Shown piece by piece: positions 4,843 to 12,646 of a DNA stretch of 64,000 bases (position 1 is the first letter of the stretch; each line of letters starts with the position of its first letter). This stretch comes from Candidatus Eiseniibacteriota bacterium (GTDB taxonomy: Bacteria; Eisenbacteria; RBG-16-71-46; CAIMUX01; WJJG01). The stretch is from the NCBI GenBank assembly GCA_030628905.1, contig DAOVQB010000001.1, positions 41,375-105,374 on the forward strand, written 5' to 3'. Both the position numbers and the translations under genes were made by a program. The notes below the pieces were generated by a model. That model saw only the letters and a list, made by a program, of their open reading frames with translations. It was not told where the DNA came from and ran no database searches.

Positions 4843-5427
4843 TTGCAGGGGAGGCAGATGGACAGGAGGAAGCCCGCGCCTCGAGCGATTCGAGAAGCTG
4901 CGGCGGAGCGGATTGCAGCCGTGGCCCTGGGTAGCAACCTCGGATCGCGCCAGCAGTACTTGAACTTGGCCCGCAGGTCCATCGCCGCCCGGTTGGGAGA
5001 TGTAGTCTGTAGCTCTAGCATTTACGAGACTCAGCCGGTTGGTCCGTCCGGGCAGGGGAAGTATCTGAACCAGGTCGTTGTAATCGACACACCGCGGGAG
5101 CCAGAGGAACTAGTCGAACTGGCCCTGGCCATCGAAAAGGAGCTGGGGCGAAAACGCGGCGTCCGTTGGGGGGGGCGCTGCATCGACTTGGATCTGCTCC
5201 TTCACGGTAGCCGCGTGCGTTCATCGGACGGCCTCACCTTGCCTCACGCAAGGATGCACCAGCGGGCGTTCGTACTCGTTCCCTTGGCGGAGGTACTGCC
5301 CGACTGGCGGCACCCGCTTCTCGATCAGACCGTCTGCCAGATGTGTGCCGCCTGTGGGGACGGCGGCGTCGAGCGCTGGGACTGCGGCAGGGTTCCGCAT
5401 GGGGCACTGACACGGACCGGGGCATGA
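4843..5427 (+). CDS. folK: 2-amino-4-hydroxy-6-hydroxymethyldihydropteridine pyrophosphokinase (HPPK)
   Basis: The translation 'AVALGSNLGSR...SSIYETQPVGP...QYLNQVVVIDT...GGRCIDLDLLL...' is the canonical HPPK motif set. Confidence 0.85.
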   Translation: MQGRQMDRRKPAPRAIREAAAERIAAVALGSNLGSRQQYLNLARRSIAARLGDVVCSSSIYETQPVGPSGQGKYLNQVVVIDTPREPEELVELALAIEKELGRKRGVRWGGRCIDLDLLLHGSRVRSSDGLTLPHARMHQRAFVLVPLAEVLPDWRHPLLDQTVCQMCAACGDGGVERWDCGRVPHGALTRTGA

Positions 5428-6107
5428 TGCCTGGAATGGAGGGTGAACTGGTCGTGAAGGGAGAGCAGAGCACACCGCTTTACTTCATCGCGATCGAGGG
5501 TGTTATCGGCGTTGGCAAAACCTCGCTAGCGAAACGCCTGGCCGATTACCTGGGCGGTTGCTTACTGCTGGAACAGGTTGAGGAGAACCCGTTCCTGCAG
5601 CATTTCTACCAGGATCGACGGGCCTATGCCTTCCAAACGCAGATCTTTTTCCTCCTGTGCCGTTACCGGCAGCAGAGGGAATTCCTGCAACGGGACCTCT
5701 TCCGAGGGCCTGTCGTAAGCGACTACATGTTTCAGAAGGATCGCGTCTTTGCCAACATCAATCTGAGTGATTCCGAGCTTGATATGTACAATCAGATCTT
5801 TACGCTCATGGAGCGCGATCAGCCAAGACCGGATCGCGTGATCTTTCTGAGGGCGACTGTGGATACGCTGCTCGATCGAATCAGTAAGCGTGACCGGGAG
5901 TATGAGAAGGAAATGGACCCTGAGTACCTCGAGACGCTGGCTGAAGCGTATACGTATTTTTTCGCTCACTATACTGGTGCGCCGGTCATGGTCGTGAATT
6001 CGAACGAACTCGATTTCAGACGTGATCTTTCTCTTGTGTCGGATTTGTGGAAGGCGGTTATTGAACACCGGGCGGGAACAGCCGTGTATAATCCGCCTTC
6101 GGATTGA
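5424..6107 (+). CDS. Deoxynucleoside kinase (dGK/dCK family)
   Basis: The P-loop 'IAIEGVIGVGKTSLAKRL', the ERS-like region and a lid region are present. The start ATG overlaps the folK stop (ATGA). Confidence 0.8.
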   Translation: MMPGMEGELVVKGEQSTPLYFIAIEGVIGVGKTSLAKRLADYLGGCLLLEQVEENPFLQHFYQDRRAYAFQTQIFFLLCRYRQQREFLQRDLFRGPVVSDYMFQKDRVFANINLSDSELDMYNQIFTLMERDQPRPDRVIFLRATVDTLLDRISKRDREYEKEMDPEYLETLAEAYTYFFAHYTGAPVMVVNSNELDFRRDLSLVSDLWKAVIEHRAGTAVYNPPSD

Positions 6108-6158: not shown

Positions 6159-6977
6159 ATGAAAGTGCCAGGTAGGATGACAGCGCGGCGGTTGATCCGG
6201 TGGAAGAAGAAGGCTCGCAAGATCTCCGTGTTGACTTGCTATGACTTCACGATGGCCCGGCTCCTTGATCGTGCGCGGGTGCCGGTCATCTTGGTCGGGG
6301 ACAGCCTGGGACAGGTCGTCCTCGGGTATGATTCGACCCTTCCGGTCACGTTGGACGAGATGATCCTGCACACGCGGGCCGTTGCGCGGGCGAAGCCATG
6401 GGGCATGATCGTAACGGATATGCCGTTTCTGACCTTTCAGGTGAGTGCTGAAAAGGCCCTGGAGGCGGCTGGCAGAATCGTGGCAGAGGGCAGATGCGAT
6501 GCCGTCAAGATCGAGGGCGGGGAACGATCAGTACCGGCGATACGGCGCATAGTTGAGGCAGGCATTCCCGTCATGGGACACCTGGGGCTCACCCCGCAAT
6601 CGATCTTGGCCTTGGGGGGTTACCGCGTGCAGGGACGGAAGAAGGCCGAGCGGGAGGTATTGAAGCGCGACGCCGAGAGGCTGCAGGATGGCGGGTGCTT
6701 TGCAATCGTCCTGGAAGCGATACCGGCAACGCTCGCGGGCGAGATCACGGCTATGTTAAAGATCCCGACAATTGGAATAGGAGCCGGACCGCTCTGTGAC
6801 GGGCAGGTTCTAGTGCTCCACGACATGTTGGGGTTGTTCACGGAATTCGAGCCGCGCTTTGTCCGGCGGTTTATGGAAGGAGCTGTTCTAGTAGAGAAAG
6901 CCTTGCGGGAATACGTAGAAGCGGTCGAAAAGGGTCGCTTTCCAGGACCGGAACACAGCTTCGAAATAGACGATTGA
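6159..6977 (+). CDS. panB: 3-methyl-2-oxobutanoate hydroxymethyltransferase (ketopantoate hydroxymethyltransferase)
   Basis: The translation 'ISVLTCYDFTMARLLD...ILVGDSLGQVVLGYDSTLPVTLDEMILHTRAV...VKIEGG' matches PanB. Confidence 0.9.
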   Translation: MKVPGRMTARRLIRWKKKARKISVLTCYDFTMARLLDRARVPVILVGDSLGQVVLGYDSTLPVTLDEMILHTRAVARAKPWGMIVTDMPFLTFQVSAEKALEAAGRIVAEGRCDAVKIEGGERSVPAIRRIVEAGIPVMGHLGLTPQSILALGGYRVQGRKKAEREVLKRDAERLQDGGCFAIVLEAIPATLAGEITAMLKIPTIGIGAGPLCDGQVLVLHDMLGLFTEFEPRFVRRFMEGAVLVEKALREYVEAVEKGRFPGPEHSFEIDD

Positions 6978-6988
6978 GGGGAAGCACT

Positions 6989-8338
6989 ATGGCGACGGAG
7001 AAGAAGCAACCTAGCAAGATGCGCAAGAAGCAGGCTGGCAAGAAGCAGGCTGGCAAGGAGCAGGCTGGCAAGAAGCAGGCTGGCAAGGAGCAGGCTGGCA
7101 AGAAGCAGGCCGGCAAGAAGCCAACCAAGGAGCGAACGAAGGAGCGAAGGAAGATGCCGACCAAGCAGGCTAATAAGAAAACCACCAAGCAGCCTATCAA
7201 GAAGCGCACGAAACAGGTTACCAAGAAGACCACCAAGAAACCTACCAAGAAGACTACCATGAAGCGCACCACGAAGGCTAAGACTACTGCCACGAGGCTT
7301 GTCAAAAGGGTGAAGACCGCTGTTCGCGGAGCCAAAAGGAAAACCAAGGTAGCTAGGAGAATCGTTGCGGACAAGGCTGGGGCGGGGGTGCAGAGTACCA
7401 CGCGAGGGAGCCCGTCTGCAGTCAAGGCGAGTATCGGCGCTGCGACGACAAAGCGGTTCCAATCGGCGGAATCGCAGCGACGGTTCTCACGCCAGATGTG
7501 TGAAGAGGGCAAAAAGATCGGCTTTGTTCCAACCATGGGCGCCTTTCACGATGGCCACATATCTCTCATGAGGAAAGCGCGCAGCCAGAACGACGTCGTG
7601 GTAGTGAGCATCTTCGTCAATCCGCTGCAGTTCGGCCCGGGGGAAGATTTCAATCGCTATCCAAGGGACCTCGCGCGCGACATGGATCAGGCTCGGGAGG
7701 TTGGGGTAGATGCCGTTTTCGTTCCGGATGTCTCCGAGATGTACCCTCAAGGATTCACAACAGAGGTCATGGTAGGCCCGATGGCCAAGCGGATGTGCGG
7801 CGCGGACAGACTGGGACACTTCAACGGTGTGTGCACAGTGATCATGAAGCTGCTCGGGATTGTGCAACCCGATCGCATGTACTTGGGCCAGAAGGATGCG
7901 CAACAGCTTGTGATCATCCAACGGATGATCGAGGATCTGAGTGTGAATACGAAGGTAGTAGCTGTTGCTACCGTGAGAGAGAAAGATGGCCTTGCAATGA
8001 GTTCGCGCAACGCTCTCCTGAGCTTGGAGGAACGAGCGCAGGCGCCGAGGCTCTACGAGGCGCTGCGGTTGGCCCAGCGCGAGATCCTCCTCGAAGAGGT
8101 GCGTGATCCACGGCAGCTCCAAGCGCGCATGCGCGACCACATTCTGCGGGATGAGGTCTTTAGGATCGATTACATAGCAATGGTGGATCCCGAGACACTC
8201 GTGGATCGCTCAGTTCTGACGGGACGCACCCTGATTGCGCTCGCGGCCCATTTGGGCCAGACCAGGCTGATCGACAATATCCTGATCAATGTTCCCGGAG
8301 GGCGGATGGCCGAGGGGATTGGGGCACTGGGGCGCTGA
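6989..8338 (+). CDS. panC: Pantoate--beta-alanine ligase fused to a ~150-aa lysine-rich, histone-H1-like N-terminal extension
   Basis: The C-terminal ~280 aa 'IGFVPTMGAFHDGHISLMRKA...VVVSIFVNPLQFGPGEDFNRYPRDL...MYLGQKDAQQ...' is PanC, with a HxGH-like 'HDGH' motif. The N-terminus is (QAGKK)n followed by TKK/KKT-rich low complexity. The ORF is continuous, and an SD-like 'gagggga' lies before the ATG at 6989. Confidence 0.85.
   Translation: MATEKKQPSKMRKKQAGKKQAGKEQAGKKQAGKEQAGKKQAGKKPTKERTKERRKMPTKQANKKTTKQPIKKRTKQVTKKTTKKPTKKTTMKRTTKAKTTATRLVKRVKTAVRGAKRKTKVARRIVADKAGAGVQSTTRGSPSAVKASIGAATTKRFQSAESQRRFSRQMCEEGKKIGFVPTMGAFHDGHISLMRKARSQNDVVVVSIFVNPLQFGPGEDFNRYPRDLARDMDQAREVGVDAVFVPDVSEMYPQGFTTEVMVGPMAKRMCGADRLGHFNGVCTVIMKLLGIVQPDRMYLGQKDAQQLVIIQRMIEDLSVNTKVVAVATVREKDGLAMSSRNALLSLEERAQAPRLYEALRLAQREILLEEVRDPRQLQARMRDHILRDEVFRIDYIAMVDPETLVDRSVLTGRTLIALAAHLGQTRLIDNILINVPGGRMAEGIGALGR
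7031..7120 (+). repeat. 15-bp tandem repeat (caggctggcaagRag) x6 inside panC, encoding (QAGKK/E)n
   Basis: Direct reading of the DNA. Confidence 0.9.
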
Positions 8339-8367
8339 GGTAGCCGCCCGAATAGAAGAGGCTTCAG

Positions 8368-9531
8368 ATGCAGGAGCGCGGGCTAGCAGTAGTGATCTTG
8401 GGAGCGGAGCACGGGGCAAAGAAAGTGGTCCCCCTGCAGCAGTTACAGCATCCAGTGAATAGGGAGACGGCTCTGCTGCGTATGCTACGCGTGGCGCGGG
8501 ATTTATCACCCGCGCGCATTCTGGTCGTCCTGAAGGATCGAGAGGATGAAACCCGGGAGGCATTGAAGGGGGAGCAATATGAGATCCTTCTTCAGCGAGA
8601 GCAGTGTGAGCTGGGGGACACCCTCCTCTGGGTTGAGGATGCGCTGCAGGGTTTCACGGGCGATCTGTTAGTTCTTAGCAGCAGTGTTTGCCTGCTTCGG
8701 CCTGAGACTCTCCAGGTGCTGATTGAGATGCATGTTGCTGAAGAGAACGCCGGAACGATCCTAACCACCAGGCTGGATGATCCCACCGGTTACGACCGCA
8801 TCGTGCGCGATGAGAAGGGGCGCGTGAACGCGGTCCGGGAGGAAGCGGATCTAAGGCCTGAAGAGGAGCGGATTACTGAAATCAGCTCAGGGGTTGTGGC
8901 TTTCCAGTGCCGGGCTCTGTTTGAAGCGATCCGCCAGATCGAGCCAGACGACAAGCGGCCGCTGCGGTCCCTCGCCGACGCGGTTGGGATGATGCGCTGC
9001 GGTGGCGGTGGGATCGGCACAGTCGCTCTGAGTGATCCCTGGAAGATCCTGACTGGGAACGTGCCCGACTTGCTACTAGGTGCCAACGGCGTTCATGCCA
9101 TGCGCCAGCATGATGAGGGCGCTGGGCCCGTGGGGTGTAGGAGGTGCCATGGTGCATTCGAGATCAGTGCAGAGACAGGCTTGCTTGTAACCGGTGAGCA
9201 TGCTTGTCTTGGTGTGGAGTCCCCAGAATTCAACAACGGACAGCTCGTGGTTTTCCCTCGGCGGCACATTACAAGCCTCCTCTCTCTGAGTGGCGACGAG
9301 ATTTTGGACGTGAGCCGATTGGTGATCTTGGGAGAGGAGACCTTGCGGAAGATCTATCGCTTCGATGCTCTGAATATTGGCTTCACTTCCGGGGATGGCG
9401 AACATCTGGCGATCCAGGTCATCCCGCGCTGGGTGGGAGACCTCAACTTCCTGCCGCTCGTATCCGGGCTGAAGATCGCACCTGAGTCCCCCGCGCGGGC
9501 TTGGGCGCGTTTCCGCGAGGTGATGTCATGA
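8368..9531 (+). CDS. Two-domain protein: a GlmU-like sugar-phosphate nucleotidyltransferase domain fused to a HIT/GalT/Apa2-like C-terminal domain
   Basis: The N-terminal half aligns to the GlmU/NTP_transferase pattern ('DPTGYDRIVRDEKGRVNAVREEADLRPEEERITEISSGVVAF'). The C-terminal half 'QLVVFPRRHITSLLSLSGDEILDV...NIGFTSGDGEHLAIQVIPRWVGDLNFLP' resembles the HIT-superfamily nucleotidyl-transfer core, but the HxHxQ motif reads 'HLAIQ', so it is degenerate. Confidence 0.55.
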   Translation: MQERGLAVVILGAEHGAKKVVPLQQLQHPVNRETALLRMLRVARDLSPARILVVLKDREDETREALKGEQYEILLQREQCELGDTLLWVEDALQGFTGDLLVLSSSVCLLRPETLQVLIEMHVAEENAGTILTTRLDDPTGYDRIVRDEKGRVNAVREEADLRPEEERITEISSGVVAFQCRALFEAIRQIEPDDKRPLRSLADAVGMMRCGGGGIGTVALSDPWKILTGNVPDLLLGANGVHAMRQHDEGAGPVGCRRCHGAFEISAETGLLVTGEHACLGVESPEFNNGQLVVFPRRHITSLLSLSGDEILDVSRLVILGEETLRKIYRFDALNIGFTSGDGEHLAIQVIPRWVGDLNFLPLVSGLKIAPESPARAWARFREVMS

Positions 9532-10172
9532 AGAGGACTGCCAGCAGGCGACCAGCGCGGTCTGGGGCGTATCGCAGGACCCCACGGCGGAGTAGCAGGA
9601 ACCAGAAGAGGAACCCCCCCGGGCTCTTGGGACGCATTGTACGCTGGGCGGTAGGCTCCATTCTCGTAATCATCCTGCTTCTTTTCTTGGCCTCGGTTTT
9701 CGGGTTCCTGGATTACCCCAGAACGGTAGAGCATGGGCCCGGAACCATGGTCTTCATCTCATCTTCATTGCCCCTCGGGGGAGCGGATTGCCCGGATCGG
9801 TCGGACATCGCACAAGGATGCCTCCCATCGGTCGAGATGATCGATGCGAAACACAAGCCGATCCGTGTACACCTGGCCAACGGCTGTGGCGTCAATCGCC
9901 TGGCCGCTTCGATGCGCGCACCATTGCAGCGGGCTGGCTTTGATGTCTGTGGCCTGGGAGATGCGGACCGGTTCGACTATTGCGAAACTCTAATTGTTGA
10001 CCGCGCGGGTGGAGGAGAAGAGGCCCGCGCGGTTTGTGCCTACTTCCAAGAGCGCTGGCATGTGGGCCGTGTTCTCCTGCAGGCCAGGCTTACCCCCGAG
10101 GCCGACGTCCTGATTGTTCTGGGTCGCGACCTAGCGGACCTCGTGGAATCCGGTAATTCCCCGTCACGATAG
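9528..10172 (+). CDS. LytR_C (LytR cell-envelope-related C-terminal) domain protein with an N-terminal transmembrane anchor
   Basis: A basic N-terminus is followed by a TM helix 'AVGSILVIILLLFLASVFGF'. The C-terminus 'RVHLANGCGVNRLAASMRAPLQRAGFDVCGLGDADRFDYCETLIV' is the LytR_C-like pattern. The start overlaps the previous stop. Confidence 0.55.
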   Translation: MKRTASRRPARSGAYRRTPRRSSRNQKRNPPGLLGRIVRWAVGSILVIILLLFLASVFGFLDYPRTVEHGPGTMVFISSSLPLGGADCPDRSDIAQGCLPSVEMIDAKHKPIRVHLANGCGVNRLAASMRAPLQRAGFDVCGLGDADRFDYCETLIVDRAGGGEEARAVCAYFQERWHVGRVLLQARLTPEADVLIVLGRDLADLVESGNSPSR

Positions 10173-10248: not shown

Positions 10249-10746
10249 TTGTTTGTGTACCCGCCTGCCGGATTCGGAGGAAATACAATGCTAGATCCAT
10301 CAACAAGATCCGGAAATAACCGCACAGCAAGGATCATAAACCATGAGTGGATTCCCGCACTGCTCAGCCTTTTCGTAGCGATTTCTATCGCCGGTCAGGT
10401 TCGCGGCGAGGTTATCAGCATCGATGAGAACCCTTGGCCGGGCGGCATTTCCGTGCGGGCGCAAGGCAGCGATGGCGTAGAGATTTCCTATGAGATGACC
10501 TCCTTTTCCATCGAACCCGTAATGATCAATGGTGCATCGATGCAGATCATCTCCATTCCAGGTATTGTCCTGCCGAGTGATGCCGGGGCTCCAAACCTAC
10601 CGACCCTGGGGCTCTTGCGTCCGGGCAGTACACAAGAGAGTGGGATGGCACGGATGATGGGGAAAAAAGTAGCAGGGGGCATCTATTACTGTCGACTAAG
10701 GCGGGGAGCAGAGCAAGGAAGGGGGATGGTCCTTATACTGCGATAG
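10249..10746 (+). pseudogene. Remnant or chimeric gene: a C25-type N-terminal propeptide-like segment joined directly to a C-terminal sorting domain
   Basis: It has a signal-like N-terminus. A block 'ISIDENPWPGGISVRAQGSDGVEISYEMTSFSIEPVMINGASMQIISIPGIVLPSDAGAPNLPTL' parallels the N-terminal region of the 1701-aa C25 protein at 31258-36363. The end 'GGIYYCRLRRGAEQGRGMVLILR' matches the CTD shared by four other genes. No catalytic domain lies between them. Confidence 0.4.
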
Positions 10747-10798: not shown

Positions 10799-12646
10799 AT
10801 GAGATGCGGCATAATGACCGTCAAGATCCTGGCTACGTTACTTGTTATGACGGGTGCCTCCAGTGGATTTCCAGCGCCGTCAGGGACCGAGCTGGATTTA
10901 ATGGGACAGGGCACGGGGCTGGGACACGCGCGAAATGGGACGGATCCTTTGGCGGTACGTATTCGCAGTAGGGTTGTTGACCTCGTTCCTATAATAGTCC
11001 CCGGGGACCTGGACGTGATCGCGCTTCACCCAGGGGAGTGGCTGGATGTCTGGATGCCGAGAGAAAGGATCCCTGAAATCGAGGCGCTGGGCTATAAGAT
11101 AGAGATCCTTCCGGCGCTTCCGCGAAGCGTTCCAGAATACTTTCATCGCTATGAAGAGCTGCTCTCGCTTCTTGAGGCTTACTGCGTGAGTTATCCGGAC
11201 ATCACGTACCTGGAGGACATAGGGGACGGGTGGGGGATGATTTACAATGATCCGGATTATCCTTCCTACGACATTTGGGCCTTGAAGATCTCAGACAATG
11301 CGGATTTCGATGAGGCCGAGCCGGTGATTCTCTACACGGGTGTTCATCACGCGCGAGAGCCGGCCACATTGGAGGTTTGCCTGGGAATCGCCGACCATCT
11401 GCTGACCCGCTATGGAACGGATCCTGAAGTGACAAGCTGGGTTGACGAACATGAAACCTGGATCGTGCCCCTGGTTAATCCAGATGGTCACTGGTGCTGC
11501 ACAGACATGGAATGGATGAGTTGGCGCAAGAATGTCCGTGACAACGATGGCAATGGATACCCATCGGTACCCTTCGGGAGCGAGAACCATTGGTGGTACC
11601 CGGATGGTGTCGATCTGAACCGCAACTACGCCTGGCAATGGGGGGGGACCGGTGCCAGCCACGATCCGCTTGAGGTAACTTACTGCGGCCCGTTTGCCTT
11701 CTCTGAGCCTGAAACCCAGGCGATGCGGGAGCTCTACTATGCCGAACTGCCCGTCTTCACGGTTGATTACCACTCCTACGCCGAGGCTGTGTTGTGGCCC
11801 TATGGCTATGAGAGCTGCGTGAACGCTCCGGATGATGGGACGTTGGAGGAAATCGGTACGGGGATCGCCAGTCTGATTCCCCGTTGGGGCGGCAGCGGAA
11901 CGTATGCATCGATGCGCAGCGGCGCGTTCTATCCAGCAGCGGGCACCTCGAGCGATTGGGAGTATGGGGAGTTGAACGTTTTCGCCTACACAATAGAGAC
12001 GTGTACGTGCCTGTACCCCGGAGAAGAGGAGCTGAATCACGCGATCCAAGGAAATGTCGCTGGCGCACTCTTTTTGCAGGAACGTGTAGACGGTCCTGGC
12101 CTGCGCGGCATCATCAGGGTAGAGGGGTTGCCCGCGCAGGGCACGATCACCATTGTCGGGATAGACAATCCGCCCATGAATATGCCGCGCCGCTCGCACT
12201 CGATCCTCGGGGACTACTACAGGATTCTGTCCCCAGGGACCTATGATATCCGCTATACAGTCCCCGGATGGGAGCCGATCCTATGCGAGGATGTAGTTGT
12301 ACCAGAGACAAGCTATGTCACCCTCGACGTGGATTTCGGTAGCTCGGGCATCGTACGGCGAGGCGGCACAGTGGTGGCTGGCATATCAGTCTCTCCGTGC
12401 CCGGTGCTGTGTGGCAGTGCCGCTACCTTCCGCTGGCCGGCGGGCCTCGATAGATGCCTGCTCCAAGTCATTGACACACAGGGGCGTGTGATAGCTGATC
12501 TGAGCCAGGAGACGCATGGCCGGGGGGCAGTCAGTTGGATTCCTCGGCGTGCTTCAGGCCTTCAGGTGAATGCGGGGATCTATTGCGCGCGTCTGAGAAC
12601 AGATGGTTTGCAAGCCACCTGCCGATTCGTAGTTCTGGGACGCTAA
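10799..12646 (+). CDS. Secreted zinc carboxypeptidase (M14 family) with a C-terminal sorting domain
   Basis: The Zn-binding motif 'HHARE' is present, along with '...LVNPDGHW...'. A signal peptide is present. The CTD is 'GIYCARLRTDGLQATCRFVVLGR'. Confidence 0.8.
   Translation: MRCGIMTVKILATLLVMTGASSGFPAPSGTELDLMGQGTGLGHARNGTDPLAVRIRSRVVDLVPIIVPGDLDVIALHPGEWLDVWMPRERIPEIEALGYKIEILPALPRSVPEYFHRYEELLSLLEAYCVSYPDITYLEDIGDGWGMIYNDPDYPSYDIWALKISDNADFDEAEPVILYTGVHHAREPATLEVCLGIADHLLTRYGTDPEVTSWVDEHETWIVPLVNPDGHWCCTDMEWMSWRKNVRDNDGNGYPSVPFGSENHWWYPDGVDLNRNYAWQWGGTGASHDPLEVTYCGPFAFSEPETQAMRELYYAELPVFTVDYHSYAEAVLWPYGYESCVNAPDDGTLEEIGTGIASLIPRWGGSGTYASMRSGAFYPAAGTSSDWEYGELNVFAYTIETCTCLYPGEEELNHAIQGNVAGALFLQERVDGPGLRGIIRVEGLPAQGTITIVGIDNPPMNMPRRSHSILGDYYRILSPGTYDIRYTVPGWEPILCEDVVVPETSYVTLDVDFGSSGIVRRGGTVVAGISVSPCPVLCGSAATFRWPAGLDRCLLQVIDTQGRVIADLSQETHGRGAVSWIPRRASGLQVNAGIYCARLRTDGLQATCRFVVLGR

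Follow-up and report, generated by a model that had tools for sequence, protein, structure and literature searches.

The closest described relatives of the protein reported here belong to two enzyme groups. In GlmU, an N-terminal uridylyltransferase domain is normally joined through a helical arm to an LbetaH acetyltransferase/trimerisation domain, and an Arg and a Lys (R18/K25 in Escherichia coli; R19/K26 in Mycobacterium tuberculosis) are catalytic. In Hint and Fhit, enzymes of the HIT type, the central His of the triad is the nucleotidyl acceptor. The HIT enzyme GalT uses its central His (His166/His186) in the same way (PMC5081055). Here we describe a fusion of the two folds, encoded by an open reading frame (ORF) at positions 8368-9531 of a 64,000-nucleotide stretch of Candidatus Eiseniibacteriota DNA, hereafter the window (contig DAOVQB010000001.1, positions 41,375 to 105,374 of the forward strand). 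Catalytic residues have been lost from both domains, as expected for the "catalytically altered paralog" that a preliminary description of this DNA had offered as one of two alternatives. With a probability of roughly 60%, and judging from its residues, we consider the window protein to be a pseudoenzyme that has lost activity in both domains but kept a non-catalytic role. The fusion appears to represent an undescribed two-domain family.

The ORF (387 aa plus stop; this and all other features given below lie on the + strand) begins at the first start codon following a stop. A Shine-Dalgarno-like GAAGAGG, read directly at 8355-8361, stands 6 nt 5' of the ATG at 8368. The product is identical to MCK4305434.1, recorded at NCBI as a "hypothetical protein" of Candidatus Eisenbacteria sp. 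from a metagenome-assembled genome (MAG). NCBIfam, PDB and fold searches bore out the two-domain anatomy of the preliminary description, with a GlmU-type sugar-1-phosphate uridylyltransferase fold at residues 4-232 (8377-9063), a linker helix at residues 233-250 (9064-9117) and a HIT fold at residues 254-387 (9127-9528). Residues 4-232 matched the NCBIfam GlmU equivalog models (E 4.8e-39) with a best score of 134.3 bits, far under the equivalog cutoff of 611, and matched GlmU structures in a sequence search (4aaw, E 6.7e-27). The full-length AlphaFold model (predicted local distance difference test score, pLDDT, 74) was aligned by Foldseek to Streptococcus pneumoniae GlmU (1g97; E 2.8e-23) with a root-mean-square deviation of 2.2 A over 246 columns, the two sequences being about 30% identical over about 220 residues. 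The likeness to the N-terminal domain of GlmU thus covers the fold, the domain boundaries and the helical arm that follows the Rossmann-like domain. In GlmU this arm leads to LbetaH, whereas the equivalent linker helix of the window protein precedes the HIT-like domain, which stands in the place of LbetaH; no hexapeptide-repeat Pfam match was found in the window protein.

The active site of the GlmU-type domain is degenerate. As noticed earlier, the G-x-G-T-R-M signature has decayed: residues 11-19 read LGAEHGAKK (8398-8424) where GlmU has LAAGKGTRM, with the changes G→E, K→H, T→A, R→K and M→K, and the GlmU signature L-x2-G-x-G-T-R-M-x4-P-K with its catalytic Arg and Lys is not present. The model falls below pLDDT 50 at residues 15-21, in the region of this loop. 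Residues 22-28, PLQQLQH (8431-8451), replace DLPKVLH, and the conserved Lys (E. coli K25; M. tuberculosis K26) is Gln. At residues 76-85, QREQCELGDT (8593-8622) replaces Q..QLGTGHA; the uracil-binding Gln is retained (Q76), and the Gly-Thr pair of the uracil pocket (M. tuberculosis G88/T89) is Glu-Leu, QLGTGHA having become QCELGDT. LSSSVCL at residues 103-109 (8674-8694) replaces [LIV].GD.PL, and the Mg2+/ribose-binding Asp of G-D-x-P-L (M. tuberculosis D114) is Ser. In addition, GYGR is replaced by GYDR and GEYY.TD by PLRSLAD. In M. tuberculosis numbering, for which the contact roles are taken from PMC9105790, G15, T18, R19 (now Lys), K26, G88, T89 and D114 are lost, and Q83, E166 and N239 are retained as window Gln76, Glu158 and Asn231, the last being the Asn of G-V-N.

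Profile searches assigned the C-terminal half to the HIT fold and not to an unrelated one. Pfam gave no match for the isolated half even at E <= 10, so the assignment was taken from NCBIfam (NF052622, "ATP adenylyltransferase"; E 3.8e-11), a PDB sequence search and a fold search. In the PDB search, residues 265-373 matched Rv2613c (3ano, E 2e-10) and the homologous protein of M. avium (6af2, E 7.5e-11). Structure prediction for residues 250-387 from an alignment of 64 sequences gave a model of pLDDT 90.6, whose top fold match was again Rv2613c (E 1.6e-10, template-modelling (TM) score 0.77). The structures 3wo5, 3ano and 6af2 headed the list (E 1.6e-10 to 5e-10, TM 0.77-0.79) and were followed by Fhit; GalT-type structures ranked 31st or lower, at E about 2e-5 or weaker. 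The diadenosine tetraphosphate (Ap4A) phosphorylases Rv2613c and its M. avium counterpart are therefore the best sequence and fold match to residues 254-387, a HIT-like domain of Rv2613c type that lacks the nucleophile. Matches as strong as those of the two halves lie well outside what chance would give.

Alignment of the window segment GEHLAIQVIPRWVGDLNF on Rv2613c AEHLHVHVVPRWGGDANF defined what has been kept and what has been lost. H346-L-A348-I-Q350-V-I (9403-9423; EHLAIQVIPRW spans residues 345-355) falls on HLHVHVV of 3ano/6af2; the first His is kept, the third is Gln, and the central one is Ala348, confirming the suspected replacement of the nucleophile. E284, E287, F288 and Q292 stand where the canonical (L)N..PYN.GH strand is invariant, FNNGQL (residues 288-293; 9229-9246) taking the place of PYN.GH(L), and the N, P, Y and H of that strand are all changed. 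The loop before the triad is shortened, and the N-terminal W.PWR..Y segment of Rv2613c is missing. Shared with Rv2613c are a CxxC (C257, C260; 9136-9147), the His of P.RH (PRRH, residues 297-300), the first triad His and the C-terminal PRWxGDxNF...P(E) segment, whose hallmark part is retained as PRWVGDLNF (9424-9450). C257, C260, H300, H346, P353, R354, W355 and D358 are invariant in 64/64 aligned family members. E. coli GalT has a structural Zn site formed by C52, C55, H115 and H164, the last being the first His of its HPH motif (PMC5081055). By analogy of position, C257, C260, H300 and H346 probably form a structural Zn site in the window protein, and such a role for H346 would explain why the first triad His has survived. 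From its residues, it is very unlikely that the fused HIT-like domain acts as a phosphorylase.

The preliminary description had related this half to GalT, Apa2 and GDP-L-galactose phosphorylase and had read its triad as a degenerate HxHxQ motif, and neither point held. The window protein resembles these enzymes in the superfamily fold, in the Gln at the third motif position and in a probable zinc site like the Cys-x-x-Cys/His/His site of E. coli GalT, in which the first motif His takes part (PMC5081055). However, these enzymes need the central His as uridylyl/adenylyl acceptor (PMC5081055), which is absent here, and GalT-branch enzymes consist of two tandem HIT-like halves, whereas the window protein has a single HIT domain of about 135 aa. 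The fold ranking also favours Rv2613c and Fhit, and membership in the GalT/Apa/GDP-L-galactose phosphorylase group was rejected on these grounds. The Gln is secondary and derived from His, which close relatives still have at this position, and the domain belongs to the Rv2613c/Fhit-like HxHxH branch.

To place the fusion among HIT proteins, we surveyed its relatives. A word-indexed search of a 5.8-billion-protein set found 5 other full-length fusions (37-51% identity). An exhaustive profile search with the C-terminal domain gave 22 representatives (50% identity clusters) at E <= 1e-30, mostly fused proteins or fragments of such, and thousands of stand-alone Rv2613c-like HITs ranked behind this group. 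Family members are named "hypothetical protein", "ATP adenylyltransferase" or "GlmU" in the databases. A second word-indexed protein search, with a clade profile, returned mostly canonical HITs and fragments, without taxonomic labels; a contig scan with a HIT profile brought up mainly canonical HIT genes that stand alone, belonging to many phyla, and missed the window's own species. We then classified 196 representatives with the PRW motif by triad and N-domain. HxHxH was present in 161, and none of these had a GlmU-like N-domain (0/161). Among the 35 in which HxHxH was missing, 19 had a significant GlmU-N match, and the rest comprised 3 proteins with a long unrecognisable N-extension (same clade), 3 tandem double-HIT proteins and 10 short fragments. 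In this sample, GlmU-N fusion and nucleophile loss coincide without exception.

Column-wise comparison of 17 fused with 47 canonical sequences extended this result to the surrounding active site. The central His was present in 0/17 fused and 47/47 canonical sequences, and across the fused clade its position holds A, T, V, Q, K, E, R or G. The canonical N, P, Y, H, H and H at window positions 284, 287, 288, 292, 348 and 350 are 100% conserved in the canonical sequences and changed in the fused clade, as are the two Gly of a 6-residue loop. This 6-column loop, which precedes the triad (N-L-G-x-x-A-G-A-G), is deleted in 13/17 fused sequences, the window protein included. The N-terminal W-x-P-W-R-x-x-Y segment, found in most canonical relatives, occurs in 0/17 fused sequences, which have the GlmU linker helix there instead.

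Other architectures were seen in the same HIT family. P0069, P0103, P0126, P0162, P0185 and P0189 are tandem double-HIT proteins, and in at least P0069, P0103, P0126 and P0162 one copy carries HxHxH or HxHxQ and the triad of the other is degenerate; these proteins are independent instances of triad loss after duplication. By eye, HxHxH is kept in three further fusions, P0123 (Nudix-like), P0141 (phosphoribosyltransferase-like) and P0100 (RNase H-like).

The N-domains of the fused proteins fall into two classes. All GlmU signatures are present in the intact class (P0002, P0003, P0005, P0006, P0048, P0059, P0081, L093, L094, L097 and L098), in which P0002 shows a sole deviation, one G→A in GTG. 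In the degenerate class (the window protein, P0051-P0055, P0057, P0058, P0060, P0062 and L089) the signatures are lost. The window protein, which has lost LAAGKGTRM, PK, GTG, GD.PL, GYGR and EYY.TD, is the mildest degenerate case; in several other members the N-domain is undetectable by profile search.

Comparison of the window protein with its closest relative, P0002, separated the histories of the two domains. Their HIT-like domains are 63% identical and about equally far from outgroups (45-55% identity for the window protein, 50-56% for P0002), whereas N-domain identity to outgroup GlmUs is 30% for the window protein and 45% for P0002. A faster N-domain next to an unchanged HIT rate indicates that constraint was relaxed or changed specifically in the window N-domain; constraint on the HIT-like domain is at least as strong as in relatives. 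Similarly, strongly degenerate members are only 15-30% identical to intact members in the N-domain and 45-56% identical in the HIT-like domain. The conserved core of the fusion family is thus its HIT-like domain, which by its residues should be catalytically dead. In a neighbour-joining tree of this domain (134 columns, 200 bootstraps), intact-N members are basal, and degenerate-N members form a crown group together with P0002. Crown support is poor and some support values were apparently misassigned after rooting, and for this reason we do not claim a number of N-domain decays.

Conservation of the locus had been proposed as a check on the fusion, and it was found: the fusion occurs in many relatives, and in every locus with flanks, from different samples and including those with degenerate or unrecognisable N-domains, the order is folK-dNK-panB-panC-[fusion]-LytR_C. 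Since the same fusion stands on many independent contigs from different samples, mis-assembly was rejected. In the window, panC (pantoate-beta-alanine ligase; 6974-8338) lies immediately upstream, as it does in relatives, and the LytR_C gene (9528-10172; Pfam E 1.5e-7) follows. The predicted translational coupling to the latter is evident in an ATGA, in which the LytR_C ATG at 9528 overlaps the fusion's TGA stop at 9529-9531; in relatives, the called genes overlap by 4 nt on either side of the fusion. No second glmU was found within the 64-kb window.

Split versions of the fusion also exist. In another Eisenbacteria MAG (L031), which like the split forms L007 and L012 came from the HIT-profile contig scan, the order is panC, short glmU, HIT, LytR_C; a GTGA contains both the glmU stop and the GTG start of HIT, and the HIT protein shows HLHLH together with an N-terminal WAPWRMAY. 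In Cloacimonadota and related contigs, folK, short glmU and canonical HIT are neighbours. In all, a short glmU that encodes the uridylyltransferase only, with no LbetaH, was found directly 5' of a canonical HxHxH HIT gene in L031 (5165-6489), L007 (3074-4428), L012, L101 and L107. This conserved pair suggests two working enzymes that are functionally linked. Two unclassified MAGs from the same scan (L083, 5085-6951; L085, 5156-6837) have panC, canonical HIT and LytR_C with no glmU-like gene between them, which makes the HIT gene rather than the glmU part the one that constantly adjoins panC and LytR_C. These split arrangements look ancestral.

The simplest history that fits these data is the following. 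A short glmU and an Rv2613c-type HIT gene would have been adjacent and translationally coupled in a folK-dNK-panB-panC-...-lytR_C operon, and these neighbours would then have fused in Eisenbacteria-like bacteria. After fusion, the HIT domain would have been inactivated, given that the nucleophile is gone from every fused protein and much of the surrounding active site from most; with its fold, probable Zn site and PRWxGDxNF preserved, it is most likely a non-catalytic binding or oligomerisation module in the LbetaH position. Later, a derived sub-clade, to which the window protein belongs, would have lost the catalytic residues of GlmU but kept the fold. The neighbour-joining tree agrees in outline with this order of fusion, HIT loss and GlmU loss. 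The window protein would then neither make UDP-N-acetylglucosamine (UDP-GlcNAc) nor cleave dinucleoside polyphosphates, and its retained role would be in ligand binding, regulation or scaffolding, plausibly together with the co-translated LytR_C membrane protein. It might serve in one or several capacities: as an oligomerisation module, since the HIT-like domain occupies the place of the trimerising LbetaH, as a nucleotide or nucleotide-sugar sensor, or as a partner of the LytR_C protein, which is expected to have its Arg/Lys-rich N-terminal tail on the cytoplasmic side.

The downstream protein is a predicted single-pass membrane protein with this tail, one hydrophobic helix and a LytR_C domain. 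It resembles VirR and Cei/Rv2700 of M. tuberculosis, LytR_C-only proteins that influence how permeable the cell wall is and use LytR_C to bind LCP ligases (PMC11832169), in being membrane-anchored with a LytR_C domain only. It differs from them in that its host belongs to another phylum and no LCP domain was seen near the window gene. By this analogy, the cell-envelope role first suggested for the fusion is plausible through its LytR_C neighbour. The operon, on the other hand, mixes folate, nucleoside and pantothenate genes, which makes adjacency to LytR_C or PanC weak evidence of a functional partnership. A specific partnership with the LytR_C protein, taken by itself, is accordingly far less probable than a pseudoenzyme with some retained role.

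The loss of canonical residues does not prove the loss of all chemistry, and several features of the window protein weigh against complete inactivation. They would fit a protein that is still an enzyme, either using another nucleoside triphosphate or sugar phosphate with Lys18/Lys19 in place of the Arg, or carrying out direct phosphorolysis or hydrolysis in the HIT-like domain without a covalent intermediate. The R→K change at residue 18 is conservative, Gln76, Glu158 and Asn231 remain, and the N-domain of intact-class relatives looks fully functional by its residues; some nucleotide binding or weak transfer by the window N-domain is thus conceivable. In the HIT-like domain, which is the best conserved part, N289, N336 and G338 are kept and the third triad position stays polar or basic (H/Q/R/K), which fits ligand binding and could also fit unconventional catalysis. 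We nevertheless consider altered chemistry unlikely. The N-domain has lost several independent catalytic elements together, with a Gly→Glu in the phosphate loop, the Lys→Gln and the metal/ribose Asp→Ser, and sister-lineage N-domains have drifted beyond recognition. The free variation at the nucleophile position argues against a catalytic role there, and the active-site loop has been deleted.

It is highly improbable that the gene is functionless and decaying, its frame being kept merely by its position in an essential, translationally coupled operon. Decay would account for the loss of catalytic residues in both domains and for an N-domain faster than in the closest relative, and a GC content of about 60% makes it easier for long open frames to persist. 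However, the rate of the HIT-like domain does not exceed that in the closest relative whose N-domain is intact, and the domain remains 45-56% identical across lineages whose N-domains are under 30%. Many independent lineages have kept the full length, the fold-forming motifs and the ATGA junction, and the HIT-domain model is confident. The other alternative of the preliminary description, a new bifunctional NDP-sugar pyrophosphorylase and GalT-like NDP-sugar phosphorylase/transferase, is scarcely credible: both folds are present and fused, and the third-position Gln is superficially like the HxHxQ of the GalT branch, but the HIT domain is of Rv2613c/Fhit type with GalT structures far lower, the Gln derives from His, the nucleophile is absent from every fused member, the window protein has also lost other invariant residues and the loop, and its N-domain lacks the catalytic Arg, Lys and Mg-binding Asp of GlmU.

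Precedents for the favoured reading, a pseudoenzyme with a retained role, are available by analogy. GMPPA is an inactive paralogue that regulates the GDP-mannose pyrophosphorylase GMPPB, and the avian Hint-related protein Asw lacks the HIT nucleophile; both illustrate how a fold and the binding of ligands or partners can be kept after catalysis is lost. GMPPA/GMPPB structures are among the weaker fold matches of the window model, with no sequence relationship beyond the shared fold. No example is known to us of a fusion of these two fold types with both of them inactivated, and our literature search found no paper containing both "GlmU" and "HIT domain". The GlmU-HIT architecture and its graded decay appear undescribed, and have been found so far in uncultured Eisenbacteria-like bacteria. 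In its residues, the window protein lacks the catalytic hallmarks of GlmU, Rv2613c-type and GalT-type enzymes while showing their fold features.

A more specific version of the pseudoenzyme reading, which is distinctly unlikely as stated, would make the fusion family a cytoplasmic sensor that binds, for example, UDP-GlcNAc, UTP or dinucleoside tetraphosphates (Np4N) without turnover and passes the state of the cell-wall precursor or stress-nucleotide pool to the envelope via the LytR_C protein, or alternatively regulates the adenylate-forming PanC. Were this so, extant lineages would preserve every step from an enzyme pair to a signalling pseudoenzyme. The apparent series runs from separate short glmU and canonical HIT genes, through fusions with a dead HIT and an intact GlmU domain, to proteins in which both are dead and finally those with an unrecognisable N-domain, and would make the family a clear case, from nature, of a pseudoenzyme arising step by step once two genes had fused. 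If its members were automatically labelled GlmU or Ap4A phosphorylase, metabolic reconstructions would wrongly ascribe these activities to Eisenbacteria-like genomes.

Some further features were observed in neighbouring genes. The folK-dNK-panB-panC order is conserved in all relatives examined. The window panC ORF encodes an N-terminal extension of about 150 aa (6974-7450). Lys, Thr, Gln and Ala abound in this extension (KKQAGKEQAGKKQAG..., TKKTTKKPTKK...), and the DNA behind it carries tandem repeats of 15, 12 and 24 nt at 7023-7280; the Pfam PanC domain does not begin until residue 163. PanC of L001 and L004 (305-310 aa) lacks the extension, which may be partly shared by L087, in which the PanC alignment starts at residue 61. 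The listed dNK ORF (5343-6107) and the end of folK (4843-5427) share 85 nt, and the Pfam dNK match begins only at residue 49, suggesting that the true dNK start probably lies further downstream. Beyond the LytR_C gene, a small ORF (10249-10746) and an M14 zinc carboxypeptidase gene (10799-12646; Pfam E 2e-56) encode similar C-terminal ends (GIYYCRLRRG... and GIYCARLRTDG...), which by inspection look like a common sorting/secretion tail.

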